Part shown: piece after piece, positions 12,800 to 60,828 of the stretch
Position numbering within the stretch: position 1 is the first letter of the stretch
Layout of the letters: every line of letters begins with the position of its first letter
DNA from: Nannocystis bainbridge
Lineage (GTDB): Bacteria > Myxococcota_A > Polyangia > Nannocystales > Nannocystaceae
Direction of reading: 5' to 3'
Length of the DNA stretch: 64,000 nucleotides
Assembly: GCF_028368995.1 (NCBI RefSeq)
Contig: NZ_JAQNDL010000001.1
Coordinates: 2,112,001-2,176,000 of the forward strand
The notes under the pieces: generated by a model
Databases searched by the model: none
What the model saw: the letters and a program-made list of their open reading frames with translations, nothing else
What the model was told of the DNA's origin: nothing
Translations under genes and position numbers: made by a program

Positions 12800-12855
12800 G
12801 CCATGTCCTGGAAGACAGGCCCACTTCAGCCTGTCCTTTTAGCCATGTGCGCTCG
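12800..12855. repeat. 14-bp-period motif array (4 units)
   Basis: gccatgtcctggaa|gacaggcccacttc|agcctgtcctttta|gccatgtgcgctcg. Confidence 0.65.
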
Positions 12856-13065
12856 CCGGCGCGCAACGGCTCGCACGCGGGGCATGGCGCACCCGCGTCA
12901 GCCCACGCCGGAGCTGTCCCAACGGACCTGCTGCCAAGGACAGCCGCGCGCGGCGGTCCGCACCTGCCCACGGGCCGATCGCCGCTTCGCGGAACGGTCG
13001 TTCCTGTCCTGCAGGTCACTCGTAAACCCGCCCTTGCGGGAGGCACCTGCGGTATTGTGCGCTGG

Positions 13066-14241
13066 ATGCGTGTCTCGCAAGTCTGGCCTGCTGTCCTGGT
13101 AGCTCTGTACTCGACCCTGGCTCTGGCCCAGTCGCCTGCCATCTCTCCAGGTCCGCGGGGCGAGCCGGCCCCGGCCGCCGCTGTCGAGCCCGTCGCCAGC
13201 GAGCCCGTCGCGCCGGAGGGCCCGAGCGAGGACCCGGCCCCCGCCGCCGCCGACCCGGCCCCCGTGCAGCACACGACCGCCCCGCCCTCGTCGCCCGAGG
13301 GCGTCGCCGACTCGTCGCGCACGCCGATCGTCGAGCCCCGCGCCAAGCCTGACGGCACCGGCGAGCTGCCGCCGCTGCCGGCCCGCCATCGCCTCGTCTA
13401 CAGCAACCTGCTGGTCCTGCGCGTCAACCCGCTCGGCGCCGAGGACCGCTTCACCCTCGGCTACAACCTCCGCCTCTACAACAACGCCAAGCCGCTGTTC
13501 CGCGACGCCTACTTCGGCGTCGGCTTCAGCCCGACCTTCTCGCCGTCGATCACCCGCATCGGCGGCAACATCGACTTCGCCCCGCTGACGATCCTCCGCT
13601 TCCGCGGCGCCTACTACCTCGCCACCTGGTATGGCAGCGATCGCTTCAAGGCCCACCCGTACTCGTCGCCGACGGCCGAGTACGGCCCCGCGAAGCTCAA
13701 GGACGAGGCGGGCACCAGCACTCTCGGCGGTCAGGCCGAGCTCAGCGCGCTGTTCCAGGTCCGCGTCAAGATGATCGCGATCCGCAACGAGGTCACGTTC
13801 TATCACAACAACATCCGCCTCCCGAGCGGCAGCGACGTGTTCTACGACCTGCGCCACGACGTGCTCGTGCCCGGCAAGGGTTGGTTCCTCACCAACGACA
13901 CCGACCTGCTGTACATGACGAAGTTCGGCCTCAACGCCGGCGTCCGCAACTCGCTGGTCCACGTGTTCTACCGCTCGGACATGTACGGCCCCGGCGAGGA
14001 CGCCTCGGTCAACCCCAACACGCCGATGGACCGCCTCGGCCCGGTCCTGACCTACACCTTCTTCGACCGCCCCGAGAAGCGCTTCAACAAGCCCACTCTG
14101 GTGTTCGCCGCCCAGTGGTGGCTAAAGCACCGCTACCGCGGCCAGGGAGCGCCGGGCATGGAAGACCGGATCCACCAGGGCATCCCGCTGTTCCTGCTCG
14201 GCTTCTCGTTCACCGGCGAGCTGGTCAAGAGCAAGCACTGA
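13066..14241 (+). CDS. Secreted / outer-membrane beta-strand-rich protein, hypothetical
   Basis: Signal peptide (..LALAQ), Pro/Ala-rich linker, amphipathic aromatic beta strands, C-terminal GFSFTG. Confidence 0.7.
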   Translation: MRVSQVWPAVLVALYSTLALAQSPAISPGPRGEPAPAAAVEPVASEPVAPEGPSEDPAPAAADPAPVQHTTAPPSSPEGVADSSRTPIVEPRAKPDGTGELPPLPARHRLVYSNLLVLRVNPLGAEDRFTLGYNLRLYNNAKPLFRDAYFGVGFSPTFSPSITRIGGNIDFAPLTILRFRGAYYLATWYGSDRFKAHPYSSPTAEYGPAKLKDEAGTSTLGGQAELSALFQVRVKMIAIRNEVTFYHNNIRLPSGSDVFYDLRHDVLVPGKGWFLTNDTDLLYMTKFGLNAGVRNSLVHVFYRSDMYGPGEDASVNPNTPMDRLGPVLTYTFFDRPEKRFNKPTLVFAAQWWLKHRYRGQGAPGMEDRIHQGIPLFLLGFSFTGELVKSKH

Positions 14242-14320
14242 GCCGCCGCCCCCTCCGAGTCGCCGCGATGCCCCGCGCTCGCGGCGATTTTTTTGCCCGC
14301 GGATCCGCCGGCCTCGCAAA

Positions 14321-14348
14321 CACATGTCCTTTGGGACATGTCCTGAAG
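14321..14348. repeat. 14-bp-period motif array (2 units)
   Basis: cacatgtcctttgg|gacatgtcctgaag. Confidence 0.7.
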
Positions 14349-14453
14349 ACCGCACGCCTCGCGGGTCTGCTCGATCCGCGGGCCCGGGGCGATCGCTCCG
14401 CCCGCGGCGATCTCCTGGAGCAGGCACACCGCGGCCCTGCTACGATCGCGCCG

Positions 14454-15386: not shown

Positions 15387-15486
15387 CAGCCATCATTCGC
15401 CGGGCGTGGCCGCTGATCCCTCCGACGTCGCTCGGGCAGAAGGTCCACCGGGCCGCGATGCCGACGGAATCTCGCGCCCCGCAGGT

Positions 15487-16422
15487 ATGGCGGACCGCGG
15501 TCCCGTCAATGGCGCCCGGCACCTGTCCCAACCGCCAGCTGCGGACAATGGCCACCCGCTGCGGCCGCTGCTGCGGACCGGCGCGACCCGGGTCGCGTCG
15601 CGGCTGTCCGGCCCCGCCGCACATGTCCCGTGGGCCATCCTCCACGGCGACGTGCGCGACGGCCTGGCCGCGCTGGCCGACGAGTCGGTCGCCTGCATCG
15701 TCACCAGCCCGCCGTACTTCTGGCAGCGCGACTACGGGGTCGCCGGCCAGCTCGGGCACGAGCCCACCATCGCCGGCTACGTCGCCGCGATGCGCGAGGT
15801 GTTCGCCGCGGCCCGGCGCGTGCTCAAGAAGGACGGCGCGCTGTTCCTCAACCTCGGCGACACCTACTACTCGGCCAAGGGTCGCCCGCACGGCCGCGAC
15901 GACAAGCACCGCGGCCGCATGCTCGCGCGCAGCACCCTGCGCGCGGTCGACGGCCCCGGCCTCGGCCTGCCGCGCAAGAGCCTGATCGGCATCCCCTGGC
16001 GGGTCGCGCTCGCGCTGCAGGAGGACGGCTGGACCCTGCGCAGCGACATCATCTGGAAGCGCCCGGCCACCATGCCCGAGCCGACCGCCCGCGACCGCCC
16101 GTGGAACACCCACGAGCACGTGTTCCTGTTCTCCCTCACCCCGCGCTACCACTTCGACCGCGGCGGCCTCCAGGGCGAAGAGGACATCTGGCAGATCACC
16201 GCCCGCCCCGACAACCCCGCCGCCCACTTCGCCCCGTTCCCCGCCGCCCTCGCCGAGCGCTGCATCCGCACCGGCTGCCGCCCCGGCGGCGTCGTGCTCG
16301 ACCCGTTCGCCGGCTCCGGCACCACCCTCCTGGCCGCCCGCGCCCTCGGTCACCCGGCCGTCGGCATCGAGCTGTCCCCCAGCTACTGCGAGGCCATGGT
16401 CACCGCGCTCGGCGGCACATGA
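15487..16422 (+). CDS. Orphan site-specific DNA methyltransferase (N4-C/N6-A, beta class)
   Basis: VTSPPY (motif IV) precedes VLDPFAGSGTT (motif I); start uncertain, between about 15487 and 15630. Confidence 0.88.
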   Translation: MADRGPVNGARHLSQPPAADNGHPLRPLLRTGATRVASRLSGPAAHVPWAILHGDVRDGLAALADESVACIVTSPPYFWQRDYGVAGQLGHEPTIAGYVAAMREVFAAARRVLKKDGALFLNLGDTYYSAKGRPHGRDDKHRGRMLARSTLRAVDGPGLGLPRKSLIGIPWRVALALQEDGWTLRSDIIWKRPATMPEPTARDRPWNTHEHVFLFSLTPRYHFDRGGLQGEEDIWQITARPDNPAAHFAPFPAALAERCIRTGCRPGGVVLDPFAGSGTTLLAARALGHPAVGIELSPSYCEAMVTALGGT

Positions 16423-16457
16423 CCTCGGCGACATGTCGACATGGCCATGTCCGATCG
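16416..16457. repeat. 14-bp-period motif array (3 units) between convergent genes
   Basis: cacatgacctcggc|gacatgtcgacatg|gccatgtccgatcg. Confidence 0.7.
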
Positions 16458-16462
16458 GCCAG

Positions 16463-17605
<1,143 letters not shown>

Positions 17606-18987: not shown

Positions 18988-19027
18988 TATGTCTTTCGGG
19001 ACATGTCGCTCCACACATGTCCCTGAC
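18986..19027. repeat. 14-bp-period motif array (3 units)
   Basis: gatatgtctttcgg|gacatgtcgctcca|cacatgtccctgac. Confidence 0.7.
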
Positions 19028-19137
19028 AATTGTTTCACGTCGCTGCGGCGCGATCGGGACCGCCCTGACGCTCGCAGTCACGCCCGGCTGCAGGGACCGG
19101 ACTTGCCGCGGCCCATGAATCGGGCCAGCATGCCCGC

Positions 19138-20781: not shown

Positions 20782-20824
20782 GCGCCTGTCGCCGAGGGTG
20801 CGCCCTCGGCCCTCTGTCACATCA

Positions 20825-20894
20825 GACATGCTCCAAAGCGCATGTCCGATGTGACATGTCGCCTGGAGCATGCCCCTTCGGGCATGTCCCTTCG
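20825..20894. repeat. 14-bp-period motif array (5 units) between convergent genes
   Basis: gacatgctccaaag|cgcatgtccgatgt|gacatgtcgcctgg|agcatgccccttcg|ggcatgtcccttcg. Confidence 0.85.
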
Positions 20895-20897
20895 GCC

Positions 20898-21473
20898 TCA
20901 GCGCGCCTTGCCCAGCACAGCCGCCATCTGCGCGTCGTCGGCGTAGAACTCCGCCACGCCGCTGCAGTCCGCGATCGACTCGGCCAGCGCGCCGGGGTTG
21001 TGGACCCCGTGGGCCAGCAGGTGGGCCAGCCGACCCTCGACCTGCGCGCGCGAGCGCGGCGTCACCAGCTCGAGCAGCCCCTCGGCCAGCAGGGCGGCCA
21101 CGATCGCGGTCGCCCGCCGATCGGCCGCGTCGTCCGGCGCCGCCGTGTCGCCCCCCTCGTCCTCCTCCTCGAGCCCGAGCACGGCAGCCACGTGCATCAG
21201 GACGCCCTCCGCCGTCGCCTGCGGATCGTCGTCGTCCTCGTCCTCCTCGTCCTCCTCGGCCTCGTCCTCGGCATCCTCGGCCTCGAGCGGCGGGGGCGGC
21301 TCGGCGAAGCACTGCACCCCGGTCGCCGAGATCACGACCACCAGCCCCGCCGGCGCGACGAAGCGGAGCTCCTGCTCGCCGCGACCGCCGACCACCGAGC
21401 ACACCGGGAACGCCTCCGTCACCGCCTCGGCCAGCGCGATCGGGTTGACCTGCGTGTCCTTCGGGAACGCCAT
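20898..21473 (-). CDS. Hypothetical acidic protein
   Basis: Start near MAFPKDTQVN; poly-D/E linker; typical codon usage. Confidence 0.65.
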   Translation of the reverse strand: MAFPKDTQVNPIALAEAVTEAFPVCSVVGGRGEQELRFVAPAGLVVVISATGVQCFAEPPPPLEAEDAEDEAEEDEEDEDDDDPQATAEGVLMHVAAVLGLEEEDEGGDTAAPDDAADRRATAIVAALLAEGLLELVTPRSRAQVEGRLAHLLAHGVHNPGALAESIADCSGVAEFYADDAQMAAVLGKAR

Positions 21474-21871
21474 CGACTCGAGCAAGCGTCGCGTCATGGG
21501 CCGCAGCATACCGCGTCCAGCCGCGCAGCGCCCGATCTGTCCTCCGGGACAGCCCCATCGAACCAGCGGCCGCGGCCGGACCGCAGCACCTCGCGCCGAT
21601 CGACGCGCAGGCGCCGGCGCACGATCCCCCGGCCAAGGGATGGCAGATCCGCCGATCCTTGCGCGCGACCGCCAGCCGCACGGACCCCAGGACCCCCCTC
21701 CGACCTCGCTCGCACCGGAGCGCGAGCCAGCGCGACCCCAGCCACGGCATCCGCACGTCACGCGCCCGCGCGCCAGCGACAGGGTCCATGACCCCCGGTG
21801 AGCGCCAGCGAGCGGCCTCCGCGCGCGCGCTTCATCGCCGGCTGCGATCCGTGGCATCCTCGGCCTGACGC

Positions 21872-22828: not shown

Positions 22829-23536
22829 ATGCGAATCGCCGCGCTCAGCGACTTCCACATCGGCGCGCGCGCCGGCATGGACGAGTTTCGCCACGACGAG
22901 GCCGCCTTCCTCGAGAGGCTCGCCCGCGTCGTCGGCGAGCACGACCGCGTCGTCCTCGTCGGCGACATCTGGCAGACCGACCACGACCTGTTCCCCGGCC
23001 CGCGCGCCGCGGCCCGCCAGCTCCACCTCGCGCGCCGCCGGCTGCCACGGCTGACCCGCGCCCTCGACCGCCTCGACTACGTCCACGGCAACCACGACTT
23101 CATCGCCCGCGACGAGCTCGGCGCCGCCGCCGAGCTGCAGATCGACGCTGACGGGTGCCGGGTCCTGTTTCGCCACGGTCACCAGCACGACCCCGTGTTC
23201 GCCCGCGCCTACCGGGCCGCCCGCGCCGCCACGTGGTTCACCGGCCGCCTGCGCCGCGCCGGCCTCGGCCCGCTCGCCCACTACTTCGAGCAGCAGGACG
23301 TCGCCATCAAGCACCGCCGCTTCGGCCACGCCGCCGGCCCCTACGCCGCCGCCGCCCGGGCCCTCATGCGCGAGCGCGGCGCCGATCTCGTGGTCATGGG
23401 CCACACCCACGTCGCCCACGTCCATTACCTGTCCGAAGGGACAGTCGTCAACACCGGCACCTGCTCGGCCGGCCGCTTCACCGTCGTCACCATCGACACC
23501 GCCGCCCGCGCCGCCAGCATCACCCACGATCGGTGA
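22829..23536 (+). CDS. Metallophosphoesterase (LpxH / UDP-2,3-diacylglucosamine hydrolase-like)
   Basis: SDFH, VGD, GNHD, HGH, MGHTH, NTG motifs. Confidence 0.8.
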   Translation: MRIAALSDFHIGARAGMDEFRHDEAAFLERLARVVGEHDRVVLVGDIWQTDHDLFPGPRAAARQLHLARRRLPRLTRALDRLDYVHGNHDFIARDELGAAAELQIDADGCRVLFRHGHQHDPVFARAYRAARAATWFTGRLRRAGLGPLAHYFEQQDVAIKHRRFGHAAGPYAAAARALMRERGADLVVMGHTHVAHVHYLSEGTVVNTGTCSAGRFTVVTIDTAARAASITHDR

Positions 23537-23562
23537 CCTGTCCCCGGGGACATCCTCTCCTG
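23535..23562. repeat. 14-bp motif pair
   Basis: Contains the perfect palindrome TGTCCCCGGGGACA. Confidence 0.65.
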
Positions 23563-24774: not shown

Positions 24775-24858
24775 GGCATGCATCTCGGGACATGCCCGAT
24801 CGGCCATGCCCGAATGCACATGGCCGATCGAACCTGCCCGATCGGCCATATCCTGGAC
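24775..24858. repeat. 14-bp-period motif array (6 units) between convergent genes
   Basis: ggcatgcatctcgg|gacatgcccgatcg|gccatgcccgaatg|cacatggccgatcg|aacctgcccgatcg|gccatatcctggac. Confidence 0.85.
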
Positions 24859-24861
24859 GCC

Positions 24862-25281
24862 TCAACCGGAGCGCGCGAGCCCTTGCATCTCGGGGTACTT
24901 CGCCGCGACCTCCTGGACATCCGGCGGGAAGTCGGCCAGCTCCTGCACGCGGCGGACCTCGATCACCTCGTTGTCGCCGGCCGGGCAGCGCGACGCCCAC
25001 GCGATCGCCTCCTCGCGCGACGCCACGTCGATCATCCAGTAGCCGCCGAGCACCTCCTTGGCCTCGGCGAACGGCCCGTCGGTCACCTTCGGCTTGCCGC
25101 CGGAGAACGACACCCGCGCCCCCGTCGACGGCGGGTGCAGCCCGTCGAGCGCCAGCAGCACCCCGGCCCGCTGCAGCGACTCGTTGTAGGCCATCATCGA
25201 GGCGACGGCCTCGGCGCTCGGCGCCTCGTCGGGCGCGGCGGCCTCGTAACCCCTGGGGATCATCAGCATCATGAATCGCAT
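24862..25281 (-). CDS. YciI / DGPF-domain protein
   Basis: VTDGPFAEAKEVLGGYW motif. Confidence 0.9.
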   Translation of the reverse strand: MRFMMLMIPRGYEAAAPDEAPSAEAVASMMAYNESLQRAGVLLALDGLHPPSTGARVSFSGGKPKVTDGPFAEAKEVLGGYWMIDVASREEAIAWASRCPAGDNEVIEVRRVQELADFPPDVQEVAAKYPEMQGLARSG

Positions 25282-28580: not shown

Positions 28581-30245
28581 ATGAGCACGCTGCGCCCGCC
28601 TGGCCTCGGCCCGATCGTCGGCCACACGACCGACCGTTCCTGTCGCCTGTGGATGCAGGCCGCCACGCTCGACGACCCGCGCAAGATCGTCGCCGACGAA
28701 GATCGGCGCACCATCGGCGTGCTCGTCGTCCTGCAGAAGGACGATCACGTCATCCCCGCGCCCGTGCGGCCGGTGTTTTATTTTCGCCTCCAGCGCGAGT
28801 TCGATCGCACCGGCACCTTCGTGCTCGGCATCGAGGCCGGCCTCGGCGGCACCACCCCCGTCTTCGCGCTCGAGCCTGACACCACCTATCGCGTCCGGCT
28901 CGCCTCGCTCGCCCTCGACGACGCCGAGGACAACGAGCTGCGCGCCAGCGACGAAGAGCTCGCCGCCACCTTGCCGAACCCGCAGGTGTGGGCGGCCCAG
29001 GTCGAGCGCCTGCCGGACGTCGCCTGCGAGGCCGTGTTCCGCACCTGCAGCCCGCGCAGCGTCGCCGCCCCGGCCTTCTCCTTCATGCTCGGCTCGTGCC
29101 GGTATCCCGGCCTGATGTGGAAGGTCAAGGAGTCCGACCGGATCTTCGGCCCCATGTTCAGGGAGCTTGAGAAGGAGAAGCTCGGCGCGCGGCCCAGCCT
29201 CGTCGTCATGTGCGGCGACCAGATCTACGCCGACGCCTTCCACCGCGCCGTCCCGGTCGCGCTCGCCGACACCCACGCCGAGTTCACCGAGCGTTATCAG
29301 CAGGCGTTCGGCTCGTTCAACATGCGCCGGCTGCTGCGACATGTCCCGACGTACATGTGCCTCGACGACCACGAGATCGAGGACAACTGGTCGCAGGACC
29401 GCCTGGGCAAGCCCGGCAAGAAGATCCTTTTCAACCTCGCTATCGGCTCTTACATGAGCTATCAGTGGAGCCACTCGCCGCGCAATTACGGCAAGCGGCT
29501 CTACTACAGCTTCGTCAGCAGCGGCTACCCGTTCTTCTCGCTCGACTGCCGCACCCAGCGTTACATGGACGACGTCCCCGACACCGTCGAGGACAACCAC
29601 ATGCTCGGGCGGCCCTCGCTCGACCCTGACGAGCCGAGCCAGCTCGACGTCCTGTGCGAGTGGCTGCGCGACCAGCAGGCCGACCGCGGCAACGTCCCCA
29701 AGTTCATCGTCAGCGCCAGCGTGTTCGCGCCCAACCCGGTGTTTGCGATGAACGGCGCCAGCGTCCCCCACCTCGAGAAGAGCGACGCCTGGCCGGCCTT
29801 TCCCAACACCCGCAAGACCCTGCTGCAGAACATCGTCGACCACCGGATCCAGAACGTCGTGTTCCTGTCGGGCGACGTCCACAGCGCCTCGGTCGCCCAG
29901 CTCGATTTCCGCGGCGCCGGCAGCGAGGACCTGCGCGCCTACTCCCTGGTCTCCTCGGCCTTCTACTGGCCGTTCCCGTTCGCCGACGGCGACCCCGCCG
30001 AGTTCGTGCACGACTCCCGCGACCCGCGGACCCCCGACACGTTCGAGATCCGCCCCGGCGTGACGATGGACTACCGCGCCTGGAATTTCTGCAACGACGA
30101 CAACTACGCCCGGGTCACCGCCGACCGGGCCAGCCACTCGCTGACGATGGAGCTGATCGGCCGCGACGGCGCCCCGATCGCCAGCAAGGGCCCCTACAAA
30201 AAAACGGTCGACCTCACCAGCCGGCTCGAGCTCGCGCCCTGGTGA
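28581..30245 (+). CDS. PhoD-like alkaline phosphatase family protein
   Basis: LGPIVGHTT, GSC, CGDQIYAD, DDHEI.DNW, LDCR, FLSGDVH. Confidence 0.85.
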   Translation: MSTLRPPGLGPIVGHTTDRSCRLWMQAATLDDPRKIVADEDRRTIGVLVVLQKDDHVIPAPVRPVFYFRLQREFDRTGTFVLGIEAGLGGTTPVFALEPDTTYRVRLASLALDDAEDNELRASDEELAATLPNPQVWAAQVERLPDVACEAVFRTCSPRSVAAPAFSFMLGSCRYPGLMWKVKESDRIFGPMFRELEKEKLGARPSLVVMCGDQIYADAFHRAVPVALADTHAEFTERYQQAFGSFNMRRLLRHVPTYMCLDDHEIEDNWSQDRLGKPGKKILFNLAIGSYMSYQWSHSPRNYGKRLYYSFVSSGYPFFSLDCRTQRYMDDVPDTVEDNHMLGRPSLDPDEPSQLDVLCEWLRDQQADRGNVPKFIVSASVFAPNPVFAMNGASVPHLEKSDAWPAFPNTRKTLLQNIVDHRIQNVVFLSGDVHSASVAQLDFRGAGSEDLRAYSLVSSAFYWPFPFADGDPAEFVHDSRDPRTPDTFEIRPGVTMDYRAWNFCNDDNYARVTADRASHSLTMELIGRDGAPIASKGPYKKTVDLTSRLELAPW

Positions 30246-30254
30246 GCGCCGAAG

Positions 30255-30324
30255 GACATGTCCCCGCGGACATGTCCCTCGTCCCATGCTCTCGAGGACA
30301 TGCCGCCAGGGACATGTCCCCTCT
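30255..30324. repeat. 14-bp-period motif array (5 units) between convergent genes
   Basis: gacatgtccccgcg|gacatgtccctcgt|cccatgctctcgag|gacatgccgccagg|gacatgtcccctct. Confidence 0.88.
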
Positions 30325-30332
30325 TCAAAAAT

Positions 30333-34555: not shown

Positions 34556-34651
34556 CCTGTCCTCCGGGGCATGTCCTCCGGGACATGCCCTTCGGGACCT
34601 GCCCTTTCGCACCTGTCCTTACACACCTGGCCTTCACGACATGTCCTTGCC
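34554..34651. repeat. 14-bp-period motif array (7 units); last unit overlaps the next start codon
   Basis: gacctgtcctccgg|ggcatgtcctccgg|gacatgcccttcgg|gacctgccctttcg|cacctgtccttaca|cacctggccttcac|gacatgtccttgcc. Confidence 0.9.
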
Positions 34652-35432
34652 CTCCGAACTGTGCTGCCCGACCTGCCGCGGACCGCTCGCCGTCGAGGGC
34701 GTCGGCGCTGCTTGCCGCGTGTGTGACCGGCGTTACTCCGGCGACCGCGGCTGGCTCGATTTCCTGCCCGACCTCGGCGCCGCGGGCGACGGCCTCGGCC
34801 CGCGGCTGATGCACAGCCGGGCGCTGGCCCGCGTGTACGAGCGGCTGTGGCGGCCGATGTTCTTCGGCGTGGCGAGCGGCGGCCTGCCTGACTACCGGGC
34901 CGAATTCGAGGCGGTGCTGGCGGCGCTGGCCTCGGCCGAGGGCGGCGCGGTCGTCGACCTCAGCTGCGGCCCCGGCTTCACCGGCCGCCGGCTGGCCGAG
35001 TCGGGCCGGTTCACGCGGGTGTTCGGGCTCGACTGGTCGCTGGCGATGCTGGCGCGCGCGGCCGCCGACAACCGCGGCCTGATGCGGCTCATCCGCAGCG
35101 ACGTCGCCAACCTGCCCTTCAAGACAGCCAGCCTCGCCGGCGCGCACGCGGGCGCCGCCTTCCACATGTGGCCCGACCCGGCCAGCGCGGTCGCCGAGGT
35201 CGCGCGGGTGGTCCGGCCGGGCGGGGCCTTCGTCGCCAGCACCTTCGCCCACACCCGCGGCCTGCGGCGCCGCCTCGAGGTCGCCGCCTCGGCTCTCGGC
35301 CGCTTCCACGTGTTCGAGGTCGATCAATTGCGCGGCATGCTCGGCGCCCACGGCCTCGTCGATTTCGAGTGCGAGCGCCGCGGCTCGCTGATCCTCTTCT
35401 GGGCCCGCCGGGCCGGGGCCGCCGCCGCGTGA
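34641..35432 (+). CDS. Class I SAM-dependent methyltransferase with N-terminal CxxC...CxxC
   Basis: CPTC..CRVC; VVDLSCGPG; GLDWS..ML; EVARVVRPGG. Confidence 0.85.
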   Translation: MSLPSELCCPTCRGPLAVEGVGAACRVCDRRYSGDRGWLDFLPDLGAAGDGLGPRLMHSRALARVYERLWRPMFFGVASGGLPDYRAEFEAVLAALASAEGGAVVDLSCGPGFTGRRLAESGRFTRVFGLDWSLAMLARAAADNRGLMRLIRSDVANLPFKTASLAGAHAGAAFHMWPDPASAVAEVARVVRPGGAFVASTFAHTRGLRRRLEVAASALGRFHVFEVDQLRGMLGAHGLVDFECERRGSLILFWARRAGAAAA

Positions 35433-39753: not shown

Positions 39754-39865
39754 CATCTGCCCCTTCGGACCTGCCCCTTCCGACATGCCCATCGGGACAT
39801 GCCCCTTCGGACCTGTCCCATCGGACCTTTTCTATCGGACATGTCCTCGCTGAACTGCCCTCACG
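39754..39865. repeat. 14-bp-period motif array (8 units), the longest in the window
   Basis: catctgccccttcg|gacctgccccttcc|gacatgcccatcgg|gacatgccccttcg|gacctgtcccatcg|gaccttttctatcg|gacatgtcctcgct|gaactgccctcacg. Confidence 0.9.
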
Positions 39866-39877
39866 GAGACCTCGCCC

Positions 39878-42158: not shown

Positions 42159-42186
42159 GACATGTCCCGTGGGCCATGTCACGAGG
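42159..42186. repeat. 14-bp motif pair
   Basis: gacatgtcccgtgg|gccatgtcacgagg. Confidence 0.6.
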
Positions 42187-42284
42187 ATCGCCAGTCGGCG
42201 CTCCCGGGATGTCCGCCAGGACATCTCTCGTCATTCACACGCCAGCGAGACGGACACACCAACCTGTCCGGAAGAACAGATTGA

Positions 42285-42467
42285 CCGCACACCCCGCCAA
42301 CGCCGAGCGCCGGCCTTTCGCGCCGGCGCCGGTCACATGTCCCTCGGGACAGCTTGCTACAGCTTGAACTCGATCGTCCGCACACCCCGCAAACGCCGAG
42401 CGCCGGCCTTTCGGGCCGGCGCCGGTCAGCTGTCCCACGGGACAGCTTACTGCAGCTTGAACTCGAT
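42285..42467. repeat. Tandem 90-bp direct duplication (42285-42374 and 42378-42467) of the ompA-like gene 3' end and its terminator
   Basis: Both copies read CCGCACACCCCGC.AACGCCGAGCGCCGGCCTTTCG.GCCGGCGCCGGTCA..TGTCCC.CGGGACAGCTT.CT.CAGCTTGAACTCGAT. Confidence 0.9.
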
Positions 42468-44284: not shown

Positions 44285-46630
44285 ATGTTTCGAATTGATG
44301 TGCGAACCAGCTTGGTAGGCGGCCTCGGCCTGCTCGCGCTCGAGGGCTGCGGCAACGTGTGCGGCGACGACGGCCTCGTGTGGAATCAGGCCGACAACCC
44401 CGCGTGTCAGCAGGTCACCGCGAGCGTGGGCGACACCGAGACGACCGAGTCGACGACGAACGATCCGACCGACACCGCGCCGACGACGACGACGACCGAC
44501 ACGCCGACGTCGACCATGGGCTCGGGCGAGATGTGGTGCAAGGACGCCGACGGCGACGGCTTCGGCGACCCGACGATGTGTCAGCCGGACATGTTCCCCG
44601 GCTCGGTGCCGAACGCCGACGACTGCGCCGACGACAACGCCGACGCGTTCCCCGGCTCGGCGGAGCTCGACTCGATGACCGCGTGCATGGAGGACGCCGA
44701 CGGCGATGGTTGGGGTGACAGCGATCCGCCCGAGGGCGTCGAGCCTGGCACCGACTGCGCCGACGACAACGCCAACGCGTACCCGGGCGCGGCCGAGATC
44801 GAGTCGATGACGGCCTGTATGGAGGACGCCGACGAGGACGGCTGGGGCGACGACATGCCGCCCGAGGGCGTCACGCCCGGCACCGACTGCAACGACGACA
44901 ACAGCACGATCTTCCCCGGCGCGGCCAAGGACCTGCCGCCCGACCAGTGCACGCAGGACTCCGACGGCGACGGCTCGGGCGACAGCATGCCCGACGACCC
45001 CGACGTCCCGCCGGGCAACGACTGCGCCGACGACGACCCGTTCACCTTCCCCGGCGCCGCGCCCAACGACAGCGCCGAGGCGTGCATGACCGACGCCGAC
45101 GGCGACGACTGGGGCGACGACATGCCGACGGTGCCCGAGGCGGTGCCCGGCACCGACTGCGCCGACGACAACCCGCACGCCTTCCCCGGCTCGGCCGAGA
45201 ACGACTCCGCCAACGCCTGCATGGAGGACGAGGACGGCGACGGCTGGGGCGACGACATGCCGCCCGAGGGCGTCACGCCCGGCACCGACTGCAATGACAC
45301 CGACGCGGCCACCGGCCCCGGCGTGGCCGAGAACGAGGTCGACCCGAACGTGTGCCAGACCGACGGCGACGGCGACGGCTGGGCCGATCCGGACCCGGAC
45401 GACGACGACGCCGTGCCCGGCACCGACTGCGACGACAACGATCCGTTCACCTTCCCCGGCGCCGCGCCCAACGACGACCCGACGGCGTGCATGACCGACG
45501 CCGACGAGGACGACTGGGGCGACATGATGCCGGGCTCCGGCGTCACGCCCGGCACCGACTGCACCGACCGCGACCCGCTCGTGCACGAGAACTGCGCCCG
45601 CTGCGAGCCGAACCAGGTCAAGTGCGTCGACAAGGACCTCCACACCTGCAACGGCGAGGGCTCCGCCGAGAGCGTCGTCACCTGCGACAACGGCTGCGAC
45701 GACGCCGGCCTCAAGTGCTGGGACCCGCTCTCGGTCGAGGCTGGCGACAGCATCTGCGTCGACCTCGGCATGCCGGCCCAGCTGAGCGCCGTGGCCATGG
45801 GCGGCGACGGCGACTACGACTACAGCTGGTCGCCGGCCGCCACCCTGAACGATCCGGCGATCGCCAACCCGGCGGCGACTCCGCTCGGTCCGACCACCTA
45901 CACCATCGACGTCAACGACGGCGAGGGCAACACCGCGTCGGACAGCGTCACCGTCTACCTCAAGAACCAGACGCTGCAGCTCGACCCCGACATCTGCGAC
46001 ACCTACGACTTCCCGGGCGCCGGCGAGGACGCCGATCCCGCGACCAACTGGTCGTGGAACGACAACACGCAGACGCTGTGCCAGACGGTCAACGGCAAGA
46101 GCGCGGCGCTGTTCTGCGGCTGGGACCTCGACAACGCCACCATCACCGGCACCTTCCAGGTCACCGACGACGTCAACGACGACGACTGGATCGGCTTCAT
46201 GTGGGGCCTCCAGAACACCGACCACTACTACCTGTTCTCGTGGAAGCGCATCGGTCAGAACTTCGCCAACTGCGGCGGTCAGCTGCCCGCGGGCATGCAG
46301 GTCAAGGTCATCGACGTCGCCGACCCGATGGTCGCCCCGCAGACCTGCGCCGACCGGCTCCAGCCGGCCGACACCGTCAACTCGAAGCTGCTCGTGCCCG
46401 TCGGCGAGTTCACCACCACCGGCTGGGCCGAGGCCACCGAGTACACCTTCGAGCTGACCCACAAGGCCGGCGGCGAGATGACCATCATCGTCCGCCTCAA
46501 GGCCAACAACAACGTCGTCGCCATGAAGACCTTCATGGACACGACCTACGCCAGCGGCAAGTTCGGCATGTACACCAAGTCGCAGGTCAACGCCTGCTTC
46601 TCCAACTTCGTCGCCAGCTGCGTGCCCTGA
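44285..46630 (+). CDS. Thrombospondin-like lipoprotein: Ca-binding DxDGDG/DC.D repeats plus TSP C-terminal (L-lectin) domain
   Basis: LEGC lipobox; about 8 repeats of C..D.DGDGWGD...PGTDC.D.....FPGAA; DDDWIGFMWG...YYLFSWK...TYASGKFGMYTKSQ..FSN...C. Confidence 0.8.
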   Translation: MFRIDVRTSLVGGLGLLALEGCGNVCGDDGLVWNQADNPACQQVTASVGDTETTESTTNDPTDTAPTTTTTDTPTSTMGSGEMWCKDADGDGFGDPTMCQPDMFPGSVPNADDCADDNADAFPGSAELDSMTACMEDADGDGWGDSDPPEGVEPGTDCADDNANAYPGAAEIESMTACMEDADEDGWGDDMPPEGVTPGTDCNDDNSTIFPGAAKDLPPDQCTQDSDGDGSGDSMPDDPDVPPGNDCADDDPFTFPGAAPNDSAEACMTDADGDDWGDDMPTVPEAVPGTDCADDNPHAFPGSAENDSANACMEDEDGDGWGDDMPPEGVTPGTDCNDTDAATGPGVAENEVDPNVCQTDGDGDGWADPDPDDDDAVPGTDCDDNDPFTFPGAAPNDDPTACMTDADEDDWGDMMPGSGVTPGTDCTDRDPLVHENCARCEPNQVKCVDKDLHTCNGEGSAESVVTCDNGCDDAGLKCWDPLSVEAGDSICVDLGMPAQLSAVAMGGDGDYDYSWSPAATLNDPAIANPAATPLGPTTYTIDVNDGEGNTASDSVTVYLKNQTLQLDPDICDTYDFPGAGEDADPATNWSWNDNTQTLCQTVNGKSAALFCGWDLDNATITGTFQVTDDVNDDDWIGFMWGLQNTDHYYLFSWKRIGQNFANCGGQLPAGMQVKVIDVADPMVAPQTCADRLQPADTVNSKLLVPVGEFTTTGWAEATEYTFELTHKAGGEMTIIVRLKANNNVVAMKTFMDTTYASGKFGMYTKSQVNACFSNFVASCVP

Positions 46631-46632
46631 GA

Positions 46633-46660
46633 GACATGTCCTTCGGGACATGACCCGAGA
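46633..46660. repeat. 14-bp motif pair
   Basis: gacatgtccttcgg|gacatgacccgaga (contains TGTCC-TTCG-GGACA). Confidence 0.7.
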
Positions 46661-46689
46661 GGCCGCCGCGTCCCCGACGCGGCGGCCTC
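46659..46689. terminator. 14-bp perfect hairpin between convergent genes
   Basis: GAGGCCGCCGCGTC-CCC-GACGCGGCGGCCTC. Confidence 0.6.
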
Positions 46690-47923: not shown

Positions 47924-47965
47924 AACATGTCCTTCAGAACATGTCTCGGACACCATGTGACAGTC
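47924..47965. repeat. 14-bp-period motif array (3 units)
   Basis: aacatgtccttcag|aacatgtctcggac|accatgtgacagtc. Confidence 0.7.
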
Positions 47966-58564: not shown

Positions 58565-58637
58565 CACATGTCCTCGCGGACAGGTCGGTGCCCGCGCGAC
58601 GGCGCGAGTGGCCTGTCCCATCGGCCATGTGCGCAGC
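58565..58637. repeat. Two 14-bp motif pairs
   Basis: cacatgtcctcgcg|gacaggtcggtgcc ... ggcctgtcccatcg|gccatgtgcgcagc. Confidence 0.6.
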
Positions 58638-58902
58638 GCCTGGACCCCGCGCCACGCCGCCGACGAGCCCGCGACGATCGTCGCGCGGGACCGACGACAC
58701 CACCAGCGCGCGCTCCTGCGGCCCGCAGCGGAGCGGGCGCTCCACGACATCCTCCCGCGGCTCTGCCTGCGGGTCCGGGCCACCTCGACGGCGCGCCGCG
58801 GCCCGACCTCACCGCGCTGACAGCTCCCCGCGCCGCCTCCGTGAGCGCCGCGCAGGCCGCGGCGGTGGCATCAGCGCGCGTTCTGGGCTATCCCCGGGGC
58901 GC

Positions 58903-60642
58903 ATGCGCCCTCGCCCGCTCGCCCTCGCCGCCCTCGCGCTGACGCTCGCCGGCGGCTGCCTCAAGATCCCGGCCGAGCCCAAGTCCCCGGAGACAGGTCC
59001 CGAAGGACAGGTCGCGACCCTGGCCTGGCCCGGCGCCGCGATCGACAAGCTGTACCGCCCCGGCGAGGTCCGCGTGTACACGATGATGCAGTCCGGCAAG
59101 CCGATCGGCACCTCGTGGGGCCGCTACGAGGGCCCGGTCGACGGCGAACCCGGCCACTTCCGCTTCGCCACCCGCATCGAGCTGCGCCCGCCCGGCCGCG
59201 ACGGCAAGCCGGCCGAGCCGCTGCGCAGCTCCGGCGAGATCGTCGTCGACGCCCGCGGCGACCTGATCCGCGGCTTCGAGCGCAGCAACGCCGCCGAGCT
59301 GGTGTTCGAGCGCAAGGGCGACGCGCTCCACTTCAACTCCGGCCGCGAACGCGACGAGATCACGTACCGCAGCGGCGACGCGTTCATGGCGTTCTCGGCG
59401 ATCTTCCACGAGGAGCTGATGTTCGGCCTGCGCCGCCTCGAGGCCGGCGAGCTGGCGTGGCGCCTGGTCAGCCTGTCGGGCTCGATGCCGACCGAGTGGA
59501 CGGCGACGCTGACGATCCCCGACCCGGCGGCGCCCGGCCGGGCCACGGTCAAGACCAACCTCGGCGAGACGGTCACGCTGCGCGACGGCCGGATCGAGAA
59601 GGTCCAGATCGAGGCCGACGACGTCGAGATCCAGGTGCCGGTGCAGCCGCCGACCTGGCCCGAGTGGCAGATCGCCGGGCCACCTGTCCTCAAGTACAGC
59701 TCGCTCCCGGGCGCCCGATTCACCCGCCGCGAGGTCGAGCTGCCCGGACGGCCCGGCGAGCCCGCGCTGGCCGGCGAGGTCCTGCTGCCGCCCGGTCCGG
59801 GCCCGTTCCCCGCGGCGCTGCTGCTGCCCGGCACCGGCCAGCAGGACCGCTTCGGCTTCGCCGGCCCGCCGCCGGTCGACCTCGGCAGCCACACGATCAC
59901 CGACGCGCTCGCCGAGGCCGGCTTCGCGGTCCTCCGCTTCGACGAGCGCGGCTTCGGCAGCAGCGCCGACGGCCCGATCTCCTACCTCGGCCAGCTCGAG
60001 GACGCCCGCCGCGCGCTGCGGACCCTGCTGGTCCAGGACGAGGTCGACCCCGACCGCGTGGTCCTCGTCGGCCACGGCGAGGGCGGCTGGAAGGCGCTGA
60101 CGCTGGCCGCCGAGGACCCGAGCGTCAAGGCGGTGGCGCTGCTGGCCACGCCCGGCCGCCCGTACGAGCAGATCCTGCGGGCGCAGGGCGAGGCGGCCCT
60201 GCAAGCGGTGCCGCCCCAGCTCCGCGACGACGCCCGCAAGACCCAGAACAAGACGCTGCAAGCGCTGAAGACCGGCCACGGGGTGCCGCCGGAGCTGGCG
60301 GCGCAGGCGCTGTGGGTGCGGGAGATCCTTCAAGTCTCGCCGGAGGCGCTGATCGCCGGCAGCGAGGCGCCGCTGTGGATCGCGCAGGGCAACAAGGACT
60401 TCGAGGTCGACCCGAACCGCGACCCCCAAGAGCTGGTGAAGCTGGCCAAGCGCCGCAAACGCAAGGCCGAGCTGCGCTCGTTCGCCGACCTCGACCACCT
60501 TTTTAAACCCGAGCCCGAGAACTCCAACCCGGCCCGCTACCTCGACGCCGCCCGCACCGTCGACCACGCGTTCCTCGGCCAGCTTACGACCTGGCTGCAA
60601 GGCCAGATCAAGGCCGCGCCCGCCAAACCGCGCGGCAATTGA
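58903..60642 (+). CDS. Lipoprotein with C-terminal alpha/beta-hydrolase fold lacking the nucleophilic Ser
   Basis: LAGGC lipobox; PGTGQQDR, LRFDERG.G.S, VGHGEGG, QG.KDFEV, LDHLF. Confidence 0.8.
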   Translation: MRPRPLALAALALTLAGGCLKIPAEPKSPETGPEGQVATLAWPGAAIDKLYRPGEVRVYTMMQSGKPIGTSWGRYEGPVDGEPGHFRFATRIELRPPGRDGKPAEPLRSSGEIVVDARGDLIRGFERSNAAELVFERKGDALHFNSGRERDEITYRSGDAFMAFSAIFHEELMFGLRRLEAGELAWRLVSLSGSMPTEWTATLTIPDPAAPGRATVKTNLGETVTLRDGRIEKVQIEADDVEIQVPVQPPTWPEWQIAGPPVLKYSSLPGARFTRREVELPGRPGEPALAGEVLLPPGPGPFPAALLLPGTGQQDRFGFAGPPPVDLGSHTITDALAEAGFAVLRFDERGFGSSADGPISYLGQLEDARRALRTLLVQDEVDPDRVVLVGHGEGGWKALTLAAEDPSVKAVALLATPGRPYEQILRAQGEAALQAVPPQLRDDARKTQNKTLQALKTGHGVPPELAAQALWVREILQVSPEALIAGSEAPLWIAQGNKDFEVDPNRDPQELVKLAKRRKRKAELRSFADLDHLFKPEPENSNPARYLDAARTVDHAFLGQLTTWLQGQIKAAPAKPRGN

Positions 60643-60649
60643 GCGGGCC

Positions 60650-60698
60650 CGCGAGGCCGCGCAAGGCAGCCGCGAGGCCCCGCGAGGCCGCGCGAGGC
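60650..60698. repeat. About 10-bp GC-rich tandem repeat (GCGAGGCC core, 5 copies)
   Basis: cgcgaggccg cgcaaggcag ccgcgaggcc ccgcgaggcc gcgcgaggc. Confidence 0.55.
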
Positions 60699-60744
60699 AA
60701 TCGCCCGCCACGGGCCGGCGGCCGACTCTGCGCCGGAGCAGCCG

Positions 60745-60828
60745 AGCATGTCCCCTTTGACATGCACTCGTGGACATGCCCTCGCGGACATGTCCCTTCG
60801 CGCATGCCCTTCAGGCCATGTTTTTTTA
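60745..60828. repeat. 14-bp-period motif array (6 units) between convergent genes
   Basis: agcatgtccccttt|gacatgcactcgtg|gacatgccctcgcg|gacatgtcccttcg|cgcatgcccttcag|gccatgttttttta. Confidence 0.88.

Follow-up and report, generated by a model that had tools for sequence, protein, structure and literature searches.

A hyper-abundant gapped palindrome in Nannocystis bainbridge, apparently a counterpart of the cyanobacterial HIP1 word

The DNA-uptake signals of Pasteurellaceae (USS) and Neisseriaceae (DUS) are oriented, ungapped words, specific to their taxa and present at about one copy per kb. They occur both within coding DNA and outside it, concentrate after genes and are kept at synonymous sites. 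Rickettsia palindromic elements (RPEs; 100-150 bp) lie in frame within protein-coding genes, and mycobacterial MIRU arrays (units of 40-100 bp) overlap stop and start codons of the genes on either side. FNR-type sites (TTGAT-N4-ATCAA) and the tandem 8-bp met-boxes of MetJ occupy a few promoter sites per genome. The REP and BIME elements of enterobacteria and pseudomonads are RAYT-associated palindromic repeats of 20-40 bp, present in hundreds to thousands of copies, which gather just past stop codons and in the gaps between convergent genes but seldom occur in promoter regions; binding by proteins (gyrase, IHF) has been proposed for BIMEs. The REP/BIME roles listed in one source are supercoiling, termination and mRNA stability (PMC3733652). 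Highly Iterated Palindrome 1 of cyanobacteria (HIP1, GCGATCGC) is put at 15- to 300-fold over-representation in PMC5861425, and its proposed role lies in nucleoid structure or DNA uptake (PMC5861425, PMC13756078).

We searched the genome of Nannocystis bainbridge (11.05 Mb, 71.5% GC) for the 14-bp gapped palindrome TGTCC-N4-GGACA, here called P14. The window, the whole 64,000-nt stretch of DNA that was analysed, holds 12 perfect copies against 0.07 expected, a number reached by none of 100 shuffles of the window. An earlier note, made from the letters alone, had called the word pervasive, and the genome-wide count bears this out: 1987 perfect copies against about 11 expected from an order-3 Markov background, an over-representation of about 180-fold, with 3 copies of the backwards-read control word. 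The gap is strict, since spacers of 0-3 and 5-12 bases yield 0-16 copies each (16 for N3 and 5 for N5). Matches at nine of the ten core bases number 4258 against 184 expected; at eight or more matches, the excess over expectation reaches about 10,000 units, or roughly one per kb when degenerate units are counted. The half-site TGTCC occurs 12,351 times, 1987 of them within perfect P14. When 2820 units are oriented by transcription, their profile is mirror-symmetric, and P14 is depleted in atypical low-GC regions. A literature search found no description of this palindrome.

On the best reading, the closest relative of P14 would be HIP1, with a REP/BIME-like placement. Both P14 and HIP1 are short, hyper-abundant palindromic words, comparable in excess (about 180-fold for P14, within the HIP1 range given in PMC5861425), lineage-wide, found inside and between genes, and conserved beyond neutral expectation; on these grounds the HIP1-like character suggested earlier is supported. 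They differ in that P14 is gapped (5-N4-5) and belongs to Myxococcota, whereas HIP1 is a contiguous octamer; unlike HIP1, P14 is biased to gene 3' ends, forms exact head-to-tail arrays, some translated in frame, and has no matching orphan methylase among the 3 of 11 genes profiled. P14 resembles REP/BIME in being a palindromic repeat of comparable copy number with the same preferred and avoided places, but its unit is 14 bp, lacks a GTAG or CGTC tag, stands head to tail without linkers, shows no covariation between its arms, and lies within genes in 42% of perfect copies, in a genome that lacks a RAYT gene. With USS and DUS it shares density, taxon specificity, coding and non-coding spread, post-gene enrichment and synonymous-site maintenance, although it is a gapped palindrome in tandem arrays rather than an oriented word. 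Like RPEs its arrays are translated in linkers, and like MIRUs they embed stop and start codons, but neither system has a 14-bp lattice or thousands of conserved singletons. The 5-N4-5 dyad has FNR-type geometry and the contiguous boxes in strict register resemble MetJ met-boxes; P14, however, has some 10,000 units that avoid promoter-side spacers.

The phase of the arrays is exact. Genome-wide, matches to GGAC[AC]TG lie 14 bp apart in 358 pairs, 13 bp apart in 1 and 15 bp apart in 0, and pairs recur at multiples of the period (223 at 28, 200 at 42, 84 at 56, 42 at 70 and 21 at 84 bp). Tandem Repeats Finder independently reported period-14 arrays in the window at 20868, 24788, 34548, 39757, 47919 and 60759. 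The motif is present at all 15 window clusters that had been described as arrays of 2-8 units; 13 are in-phase arrays, but those at 23535 and 58565 are single perfect units, the latter with a 2-unit array 45 nt further on (Table 1). The basic, autonomous unit is the single 14-mer, not the array or the 14-bp lattice, since 1145 of the 1987 perfect copies (58%) have no neighbouring half-site, as against just 196 of 956 GGACATGTCC decamers without an N4-spaced partner. A deeper-branching genome of the genus, G009, repeats the palindrome also at periods of 17, 25, 33 and 38 bp, so that cooperative binding at exactly 14 bp is not required; this observation speaks against a fixed cooperative lattice.

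Arrays grow by duplication of units, filtered by the reading frame in genes. In intergenic arrays, spacers are identical in 3.1-4.0% of pairs at unit distances 1-3 (4.0% for adjacent units) against 1.15% of random pairs, whereas in coding arrays identical spacers are confined to unit distances 3 (7.4%) and 6 (11%). The spacer identity of adjacent units, together with unit numbers that vary between species, corrects the earlier view that the units are too divergent for recent slippage.

Table 1. P14 units and arrays in the window (positions of the 64,000-nt stretch; strand not assigned)
Feature	Position	Context
Single perfect unit	5049..5062	Within called gene 4983-6572 (minus strand)
4-unit array	12790..12845	Begins 10 nt past the stop of an amidohydrolase gene (11407-12780)
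2-unit array, first unit perfect	14325..14352	Gene 13057-14241 to gene 14331-15386
4-unit array	16406..16461	Fills the convergent spacer between a DNA methylase gene (15487-16422, +) and an acyl-CoA dehydrogenase gene (16463-17605, -); overlaps the methylase stop codon (16420-16422) and ends 2 nt before the dehydrogenase gene end
3-unit array	18990..19031	Begins 3 nt past the stop of gene 18166-18987
6-unit array	20815..20898	Convergent spacer 20781-20898; weaker in-phase unit at 20787
Single perfect unit	21538..21551	Divergent spacer 21509-21872
Single perfect unit	23430..23443	Within a metallophosphoesterase gene (22829-23536)
Single perfect unit	23539..23552	Begins 3 nt past the stop at 23536; register +2
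6-unit degenerate array, TGCCC/GGCCA variants	24779..24862	Fills convergent spacer 24769-24862
6-unit array	30245..30328	Fills the convergent spacer between a PhoD-like gene (28581-30245) and a DHODH-like gene (30333-31625)
7-unit array	34558..34655	Fills the entire gap from the HMA gene stop (34555) to the next gene; the ATG at 34641 is that of a CATG junction
8-unit array	39758..39869	Ends 9 nt upstream of the hydrolase gene start codon (39878)
2-unit array (42163-42190) and single units at 42210, 42265, 42338 and 42431	42163..42444	Convergent spacer; unit 42431 lies 3 nt beyond the stop codon of an OmpA-family gene (42447-43913, minus strand)
3-unit array	46623..46664	The spacer of the first unit holds the stop codon (46628-46630) of gene 44300-46630
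2-unit array	47928..47955	
Perfect single unit and 2-unit array (58614-58641)	58569..58641	Single unit begins 8 nt past the stop at 58561
5-unit array	60749..60818	Convergent spacer 60642-60826

Placement was scored on gene calls from a purpose-made codon-likelihood caller rather than a curated annotation. The earlier observation that arrays sit at stop codons or between convergent genes holds throughout the genome: arrays occur in 36% of convergent spacers but 3% of divergent ones, lie a median 15 nt after a stop as opposed to 166 nt before the next start, and have units starting in sharp stop-codon registers at -3 (64 cases) and +2 (91 cases), which one-step changes inside the lattice (TGT to TGA and GGA to TGA) explain. 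Unit density per kb falls from 12.7 in convergent spacers through 3.8 in tandem and 1.08 in divergent spacers to 0.46 in coding DNA; the convergent value exceeds the coding one 28-fold, and among convergent spacers 50-400 bp long 53-64% are occupied. Describing the motif as intergenic was nevertheless too narrow, as 834 of the 1987 perfect copies (42%) and 156 arrays of at least four units fall within called genes. Arrays translated in frame are seen, for example, in the hypervariable linkers of two Lhr helicase paralogues, where units occur in 3/3 orthologues within the genus and 0/7 from other genera, as well as in a kinase-GAF-sigma54 activator, a TPR protein, an Omp85-family protein and a HEAT protein. 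In-gene copies prefer fast-evolving parts of proteins (flank mismatch ratios 1.2-1.7), and density drops from 0.47 to 0.09 per kb across deciles of codon-usage score.

The core of in-gene P14 is under purifying constraint. In about 500 kb aligned between two species (G000 and G001), identity at third codon positions was compared with a base-specific expectation. Core third positions are identical at 120/120 in 31 perfect in-gene sites, where 76.3% is expected (p = 8e-15); identity is 95.4% against 75.7% expected for the 103 sites matching 9/10 and 90.3% against 78.8% for those matching 8/10, and the chance-level matches at 7/10 (n = 1445) and 6/10 (n = 9027), which serve as an internal control, behave as expected. 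The 4-base spacer is not conserved. When mismatch ratios (observed over expected) at 79 isolated coding sites are folded about the dyad, the outer pairs T0/A13 and G1/C12 stand at 0.11 and 0.00, the inner positions at 0.28-0.44, the spacer at 1.41 and 1.08 and the flanks at 1.2-1.7. In-gene singletons change through substitution, not insertion or deletion.

Arrays persist at fixed loci beyond species lifetimes, whereas the number of units in them keeps changing. In 230 orthologous spacers the unit counts of the two species correlate (rho 0.886), and presence or absence agrees in 210 (135 empty and 75 occupied in both species); of the 42 spacers in which at least one species has three or more units, 41 are occupied in both species but only 5 show equal counts. 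Within the window, the 30245 array is found in the same place in 4/5 sister genomes, while in the fifth (G003) the orthologous spacer is 2139 nt long with units at its far end only. The 34558 array has orthologues of 5-7 units in 6 species, and the 39758 array is kept in 6 species although the remaining spacer is not alignable.

The word is lineage-specific. All 11 Nannocystis genomes are hyper-abundant (114-1987 copies against 1-5 of the control word; 25-180 per Mb), two sister genera are mildly enriched (87-169 copies in g2 and 67-161 in g4; 8-19 per Mb), and the rest of the family stands at background, with 2-10 copies in ten other genera and 6-20, at most slightly above, in genus g32. The sister genera carry dispersed singletons only, 10/16 of them in genes.

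P14 is probably a site on double-stranded DNA for a putative dimeric protein; selection or drive would maintain it, and slippage would have built the arrays. Symmetric constraint, a fixed but free N4 gap and the absence of arm covariation are consistent with a dimer that recognises duplex DNA: among 1527 unbiased middle units, Watson-Crick pairing between arms is 0.437, 0.536 and 0.557 where 0.395, 0.522 and 0.547 are expected from the marginals. These features agree with the earlier idea of binding arrays for a dimeric protein; the 14-bp lattice that came with it needs changing, given the solitary majority, the sister genera with singletons alone and the G009 periods. We propose that a homodimeric, sequence-specific protein would recognise P14, each monomer reading one TGTCC half-site, with TG most important, and the half-sites held exactly 4 unread base pairs apart. 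Selection, or a transmission or repair drive, would keep the word at about one per kb chromosome-wide, genes included, and replication slippage or unequal exchange would multiply whole units where DNA length is free, namely after stop codons, in convergent spacers and in disordered protein linkers. Head-to-tail arrays would then place adjacent half-sites into GGACA|TGTCC decamers every 14 bp. As to what such reading might achieve, we tentatively rank highly occupied landing pads where transcription units end, with a nucleoid, supercoil or boundary function of the kind suggested for BIMEs and HIP1, above a doubtful role as a 'self' tag for DNA uptake or recombination. Complete conservation at some 10,000 sites, which goes against the dimer-site reading, would come more easily from drive than from selection acting on each site in turn for the sake of a structural protein.

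It is rather unlikely that P14 is itself a DNA-uptake or 'self-recognition' signal like USS and DUS, a role now also proposed for HIP1. Molecular drive would in that case maintain and multiply it: fragments with more and better sites would be taken up or recombined more often, and arrays would be drive-favoured duplications in free DNA. We know of no report on competence or uptake bias in Nannocystis. HIP1 offers a precedent, as it enhances transformation and is proposed as an uptake sequence in PMC13756078 and bioRxiv 10.1101/2024.09.10.611283. Density, the graded lineage-specific range, the spread over genes and spacers with its preference for fast-evolving protein parts, the complete synonymous-site conservation, the low-GC depletion and multiplication in G009 at whatever period was available all suit this account. 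It sits poorly with a gapped palindrome, and the convergent excess and occupancy exceed what drive plus tolerance would obviously predict. That P14 is a selfish palindromic repeat of the REP, MITE or RPE type, without host function and settling where least harmful, we consider improbable. The density order from convergent spacers to coding DNA follows tolerance, and the in-frame arrays in hypervariable linkers of real proteins, the genus-restricted Lhr units and the turnover of unit numbers are as expected; gene conversion among copies would mimic conservation. Yet no recent mobility is seen, with 210 of 230 orthologous spacers concordant between the two species, in-gene singletons vary by substitution and exceed neutral conservation, a 14-bp insertion cannot be in frame, the sister genera hold only dispersed singletons, and the Y1/RAYT transposase family (PF01797) has no match in the genome. 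The last result also supports the earlier view that this is not a classical REP, with the RAYT type excluded, and the view that it is not a CRISPR stands as well.

Very improbable, in our judgement, is an orphan DNA methyltransferase target whose abundance would stem from biased methyl-directed repair or from functions that depend on methylation, an idea also discussed for HIP1, which is recognised by two orphan methylases according to PMC4390886 and PMC13756078. The genome does hold 10 PF01555 loci, counting the gene in the window, and a single PF02086 locus. However, C5 methylases (PF00145) are absent, which leaves no VSP-type repair drive; the half-site alone is not obviously enriched; and none of the 3 PF01555/PF02086 genes profiled as candidate binding proteins, of 11, follows the motif's taxonomic range, a result that counts against the dimer-site reading too. 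The window's methylase is found in no other of 30 genomes searched apart from one 42%-identical partial match, the strongest PF01555 gene occurs in 29/30 family genomes, including genera without the motif, and another is absent from g2. An RNA or single-stranded-DNA hairpin, in which adjacent units pair as 10-bp stems and end or stabilise transcripts or stall ribosomes at stop codons, as some REPs do, appears quite unlikely. The 3'-end placement, the sharp stop-codon registers and the strong predicted folds speak for it, as does a slight sense-strand bias to G.U-compatible over A.C variants (401 against 342, p = 0.03; 312 against 258, p = 0.03), and mirror symmetry alone leaves room for it because a perfect palindrome gives the same RNA hairpin from either strand. 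Against it, the arms show no compensatory changes, constraint is strongest at the open stem end (TG/CA) rather than at the loop-closing pairs, loop length is strict, 156 arrays of at least four units are tolerated within genes, and the registers follow from one-step codon changes. U-tracts follow 4-5% of arrays, the same as in controls; a simple terminator scan found none at arrays, and arrays had no match in Rfam.

The small G.U excess on the sense strand also goes against the dimer-site reading, and so does the strong single-strand folding of arrays, whose z values range from -1.6 to -7.7 and whose energies reach -51 kcal/mol (-43.4 kcal/mol, z -7.7, for the array at 60749..60818).

The 14-bp gapped palindrome TGTCC-N4-GGACA (P14; one copy is a unit, and units abutting every 14 bp form an array) is a real feature of the Nannocystis bainbridge genome (G000; 11.05 Mb, 71.5% GC, five contigs). 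The window, G000:C1:2112001-2176000, alone carries 12 perfect copies against 0.07 expected, a number reached in 0 of 100 shuffles, and all 15 clusters described in an earlier note made without database searches are present, 13 as arrays and two as single units. That note had proposed counts against a Markov background and a 14-bp autocorrelation as checks, and both bear the motif out. Genome-wide there are 1987 perfect copies where an order-3 Markov simulation gives about 11, and 4258 sites matching nine of the ten core bases where it gives 184. The control word, P14 read backwards, occurs three times, and for every other spacer length up to 12 bases the identical half-sites number 0-16. A de novo scan of contig C3 over all patterns of a 5-mer, a spacer and the reverse complement ranked P14 far on top (451 vs 3.0 expected). 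The excess over expectation, summed at eight or more matches, amounts to ~10,000 units, and P14 covers about 1.3% of the 11-Mb genome.

Spacing is equally strict. Successive hits of GGAC[AC]TG lie 14 bp apart in 358 cases, 13 bp apart in one and 15 bp apart in none, with echoes at 28, 42, 56, 70 and 84 bp. Seeding at nine or more matches with in-phase extension yielded 5281 loci, 682 of them with at least five units and the longest with 12. The earlier note's view that these are not CRISPR arrays stands: a CRISPR has unique 25-40-nt spacers between its repeats, whereas here the units abut every 14 bp with four variable bases in between. Its attention had been drawn to the decamer GGACATGTCC, which lacks an N4-spaced partner in merely 196 of 956 occurrences, and 1145 of the 1987 perfect P14 copies have no adjoining half-site. 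The decamer is therefore the seam of abutting units, and the autonomous unit is the 14-mer.

Placement was scored against 8117 genes (85% coding) from a codon log-likelihood caller trained on G000, which is not a curated annotation. Unit density falls from 12.7 per kb in convergent spacers to 3.8 in tandem spacers, 1.08 in divergent spacers and 0.46 in coding DNA. Arrays of at least three units occupy 515 of 1438 convergent, 434 of 4246 tandem and 42 of 1443 divergent spacers. At least one site with nine matches is found in 53-64% of convergent spacers of 50-400 bp, and among spacers of 100-200 bp the proportion with a site is 64% for convergent but 5% for divergent pairs. Roughly two-thirds of convergent gene ends are marked by P14. 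Arrays in tandem spacers begin a median of 15 nt past the upstream stop and lie 166 nt ahead of the next start. Unit starts fall in sharp registers at gene boundaries: in 64 cases the stop TGA takes up positions 0-2 of the unit (register -3), in 91 cases the stop is the GGA of a preceding half-site turned TGA (register +2), both registers having 14-bp echoes, and in 44 cases the start is the ATG of a CATG seam (register +1). Density averages 28 sites per 50 kb across G000 (range 2-60) and correlates with GC (rho 0.53); no origin or terminus gradient is visible along the five contigs. Two P14-poor regions, one on contig C1 and one on C2, may have been acquired or rearranged recently.

Within called genes lie 834 of the 1987 perfect copies (42%), spread across the first eight-tenths of gene length and scarcer in the last fifth. 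Arrays of at least four units that sit inside a single gene number 156, and checks on the six longest hosts showed genuine multidomain proteins: two Lhr helicase paralogues, a kinase-GAF-sigma54 activator, a TPR protein, an Omp85-family protein and a HEAT protein. The Lhr arrays lie, in both paralogues, in the linker between the two RecA-like domains and are translated through all three frames in turn (e.g. ...GHVLEAMPDQTCPEAHVLADS...). This linker is hypervariable across the family; all 3 orthologues examined from the genus have P14 units there, and none of the 7 from other genera does. P14 also moulds protein linkers. The palindromic elements of Rickettsia resemble P14 in this in-gene behaviour.

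Spacer identities reveal how arrays grow. In intergenic arrays, 4.0%, 3.6% and 3.1% of unit pairs at distances 1, 2 and 3 have identical spacers vs 1.15% at random, and in coding arrays identity appears solely at distances 3 (7.4%) and 6 (11%), that is, in 42-bp steps that preserve the reading frame. Arrays enlarge via whole-unit duplication, and coding arrays are under true reading-frame selection, their frame-keeping 42-bp steps accounting for the strong 42-bp peak among the distances between hits. In-gene density drops from 0.47 per kb in the lowest decile of codon-usage score to 0.09 in the highest.

Conservation was measured against the sister genome G001 over 800 kb, of which ~500 kb yielded alignment (identities of ~0.93, 0.95 and 0.85 at the three codon positions), using those core bases of in-gene sites that occupy third codon positions and a base-specific expectation. 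The 31 perfect sites offer 120 such bases, and all 120 are identical, vs 76.3% expected (p = 8e-15). Identity is 95.4% vs 75.7% expected at 103 sites with nine matches and 90.3% vs 78.8% at 239 sites with eight, and it is as expected at sites with seven or six, which are mostly chance matches and serve as a neutral control. Folding the mismatch ratio (observed/expected) of 79 isolated coding sites on the dyad gave a footprint of 0.11 at T0/A13, 0.00 at G1/C12 and 0.28-0.44 at the inner positions, with 1.41 and 1.08 in the spacer and 1.2-1.7 in flanking coding bases. The below-expectation identity of the spacer had raised a suspicion of hypermutability, which we dropped on seeing the flanks equally elevated; the spacer is merely neutral, and the sites lie in fast-evolving parts of proteins.

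Arrays persist as loci while their lengths change. Unit counts in 230 orthologous spacers correlate between the two species (rho 0.886), and of the 42 spacers in which either species has at least three units, 41 are occupied in both, yet the number is equal in only five. Across six species, four of five window spacers checked keep an array of 5-8 units in phase wherever the spacer could be anchored, the rest of the spacer being unalignable; the fifth has scattered units whose places differ.

The survey of Nannocystaceae against other lineages suggested in the earlier note returned a graded pattern. All 11 Nannocystis genomes have a large surplus of P14 (114-1987 copies vs 1-5 for the backwards-read control). 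The word is moderately enriched in two sister genera (87, 121 and 169 copies in one, g2; 161, 87 and 67 in the other, g4), perhaps slightly enriched in another genus (20, 6 and 20) and at background (2-10 copies) in ten genera. In g2 and g4 it occurs as singletons; of 16 distinct sites examined there, 10 are in genes. The double decamer occurs in 8 of the 10 other genomes of the genus, in 0 of 14 from the family's other genera and in 0 of 16 from the class's other families. The two genus genomes devoid of it are fragmented bins, and P14 arrays are likely prone to break short-read assemblies. A scan of 185,579 species, each represented by a single genome, gave 78 double-decamer stretches, by record title 64 from Nannocystis, nine from one Nannocystaceae bin, two from one 'Myxococcales' bin and three lone stretches in unrelated taxa, about the chance expectation; in viral contigs the double unit was absent. 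P14 is a clean genus-level signature that could aid binning of Nannocystis DNA. Genome G009, which branches deeper in the genus, has P14 repeated every 14 bp as well as inside tandem repeats of 17, 25, 33 and 38 bp; here it is the palindrome itself, not the 14-bp spacing, that gets multiplied. Small samples of three other genera (140, 42 and 120 kb) contained no comparable hyper-abundant palindrome.

Coordinates of features in the window and in other stretches of Nannocystaceae genomes
Location	Feature	Observation
Window 13057-16422	Probable island	Synteny with sister genome G001 broken
Window 15487-16419	PF01555 N6/N4 DNA methylase gene	Two Pfam-less genes upstream
Window 34641	Gene start	ATG of the CATG seam; arrangement kept in six species
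Window 39758-39869	Array	Eight abutting 14-mers
Window 42088-42447	Spacer with scattered units	Unit positions differ among species
Window 42285-42467	93-bp tandem duplication	2.0 copies, 92% matches
Window 42447-43913, minus	OmpA-family gene	
Window 42447-46630	Two neighbouring thrombospondin-type-3-repeat protein genes	TSP_3 + OmpA and TSP_C
Window 54527-58558	Gene for a 1344-residue protein of STAND-like architecture	AAA_35 ATPase fused to many WD40 blades; perfect P14 8 nt past the stop
G000:C1:1100000-1300000	P14-poor region	5- to 10-fold sparser, GC lower, flat GC skew
G000:C2:750000-800000	P14-poor region	5- to 10-fold sparser, GC lower
G000:C1:2094285-2096339	Methylase gene L201	PF01555, 685 residues
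G001:C1:9700001-9840000 (L010-L016)	140 kb non-syntenic with G000	Lower GC (68.2%), no perfect P14
G009:C1:200001-600000 (L166-L185)	Intergenic tandem repeats	One CTG(G/T)CC-N4-GGACAG per 17-, 25-, 33- or 38-bp unit
G019:C1:1-120000 (L144-L149; another genus of the family)	Strong 7-bp-period tandem signal	Self-matches at 7, 14, 21, 28 and 35 bp; sequence unrelated to P14

What reads the motif was approached through the profile of 1527 units picked solely for having good units on both sides. Conservation is 88-95% at the outer TG and CA and 49-73% at the inner three positions, the spacer centre is A/T-enriched, and Watson-Crick pairing between the arms does not exceed what column frequencies predict. 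Four results speak against a hairpin kept for its pairing: the N4 spacer is fixed in length but free in sequence, the footprint is dyad-symmetric and peaks at the outer TG/CA, compensatory change is absent, and the profile oriented by transcription shows mirror symmetry. We nevertheless keep an RNA or single-stranded-DNA role as a very slim possibility because the perfect palindrome would give an identical RNA hairpin from either strand, G.U-compatible changes are in small excess on the sense strand (401 vs 342), and arrays fold strongly in silico. Intrinsic, Rho-independent termination fails as an explanation, since a U-tract follows arrays at a rate like that of mirrored controls (4.3-4.8% vs 1.9-4.0%) and a terminator scan of window positions 28000-47999 placed none at any array. 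The window has no Rfam family match, and a search of public runs returned no RNA run of N. bainbridge, only metagenome contigs, which do not reveal transcript ends and contained no more than 0.13 of the sampled words.

Among non-coding classes, divergent spacers have the least P14, which speaks against a promoter operator array. Its position past stops and in convergent spacers is that of REP/BIME elements. REP sequences, however, are strictly extragenic, whereas P14 is found in genes as well, and they are imperfect hairpins of 20-40 nt kept by compensatory change, whereas P14 spans 14 bp with arm pairing as the marginals predict. The RAYT gene of REPIN-RAYT systems was not found either: the Y1 HUH profile PF01797 has no match in G000 (90.5% complete), and the same search was positive in 6 of 14 control genomes. 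A REP/RAYT element, a CRISPR, an intrinsic terminator and a promoter operator array were all considered, and P14 lacks the defining properties of each. Singletons conserved inside genes, loci that stay put and the missing RAYT gene argue against a selfish element currently on the move. Tolerance nonetheless clearly shapes where arrays can expand. The fixed N4, the dyad footprint, the lack of compensation and the mirror symmetry fit a putative homodimeric reader of duplex DNA. Complete conservation, graded taxonomic build-up and depletion from atypical regions are as expected under selection or under a drive acting through transmission or repair; the debate on HIP1 concerns the same alternatives.

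A bolder reading, to which we give somewhat less than even odds, is a genome-wide word system in Nannocystis and its nearest relatives: a dedicated dimeric P14 reader would drive the word to ~10,000 copies by uptake, recombination or repair bias, and the resulting DNA-level pressure would be strong enough to freeze synonymous sites, write stops and starts, and insert 14-residue-periodic three-frame peptides into proteins such as helicases, kinases and those of the outer membrane. In its workings P14 is closest to HIP1, whose function, to our knowledge, has stood unsolved for about 30 years. It shows the over-representation by one to two orders of magnitude that marks HIP-type words, and it lies within and between genes, conserved beyond neutrality. 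HIP1 is a contiguous 8-bp palindrome, whereas P14 is gapped (5-N4-5) with an unconstrained spacer. P14 also resembles USS/DUS words in its density (~1 per kb), its lineage specificity and its occurrence in coding and non-coding DNA. One account describes HIP1 as conserved within and between ORFs and possibly acting in nucleoid structure (PMC5861425); another, which applied phylogenetically corrected regression to HIP1, presents it as a possible uptake sequence read by two orphan methylases (PMC13756078; see bioRxiv 10.1101/2024.09.10.611283).

P14 is an apparently undescribed palindrome of the highly-iterated-palindrome kind; the literature searched, with subscription journals and supplementary files outside its coverage, yielded no prior description. 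As an independent case just as extreme as HIP1, and one found in cultivable myxobacteria, it offers a second system for seeking a reader protein and for testing the nucleoid-structure explanation against the DNA-uptake one. If the proposed reading is true, the P14 word system would be a second, independent and experimentally tractable HIP1-like case, and P14 would belong to a broader class, as yet without a name, of phased palindrome arrays at the ends of bacterial genes. Because P14 constrains synonymous sites, it would bias dN/dS and codon-usage analyses.

Methylases were surveyed as candidate partners. A C5 methylase (PF00145) is absent from G000, which has 11 PF01555/PF02086 genes; three of these were profiled and none fits P14's taxonomic range. 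The PF01555 gene of the window, whose nearest solved structures are N4-cytosine methyltransferases, has no counterpart elsewhere among the 30 genomes searched except for one 42%-identical partial match, and its island is probably a strain-specific restriction-modification island. Methylase locus L198 is family-wide. L201 is genus-restricted, absent from g2 and represented elsewhere by weak 35-37% homologues alone, in two of three g4 genomes; compared with a sister species it is 90% identical over residues 1-420 and 59% over its C-terminal 175 residues.

Repeats other than P14 were seen too. The non-syntenic stretch of G001 shows a periodicity of 18 bp (247 seven-mer self-matches at that distance), and GTCCG-N6-CGGAC and CGGAC-N2-GTCCG are in excess there. 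The two thrombospondin-type-3-repeat genes of the window contain long tandem DNA repeats of 84-135 bp (and 270/402 bp). Each copy of the neighbouring 93-bp duplication comprises the final ~25 nt of the OmpA-family gene, a single P14 and a GC-rich, terminator-like hairpin (GCGCCGGC...GCCGGCGC), and the orthologous spacers in sister genomes are very unequal in length, at 253-633 nt.
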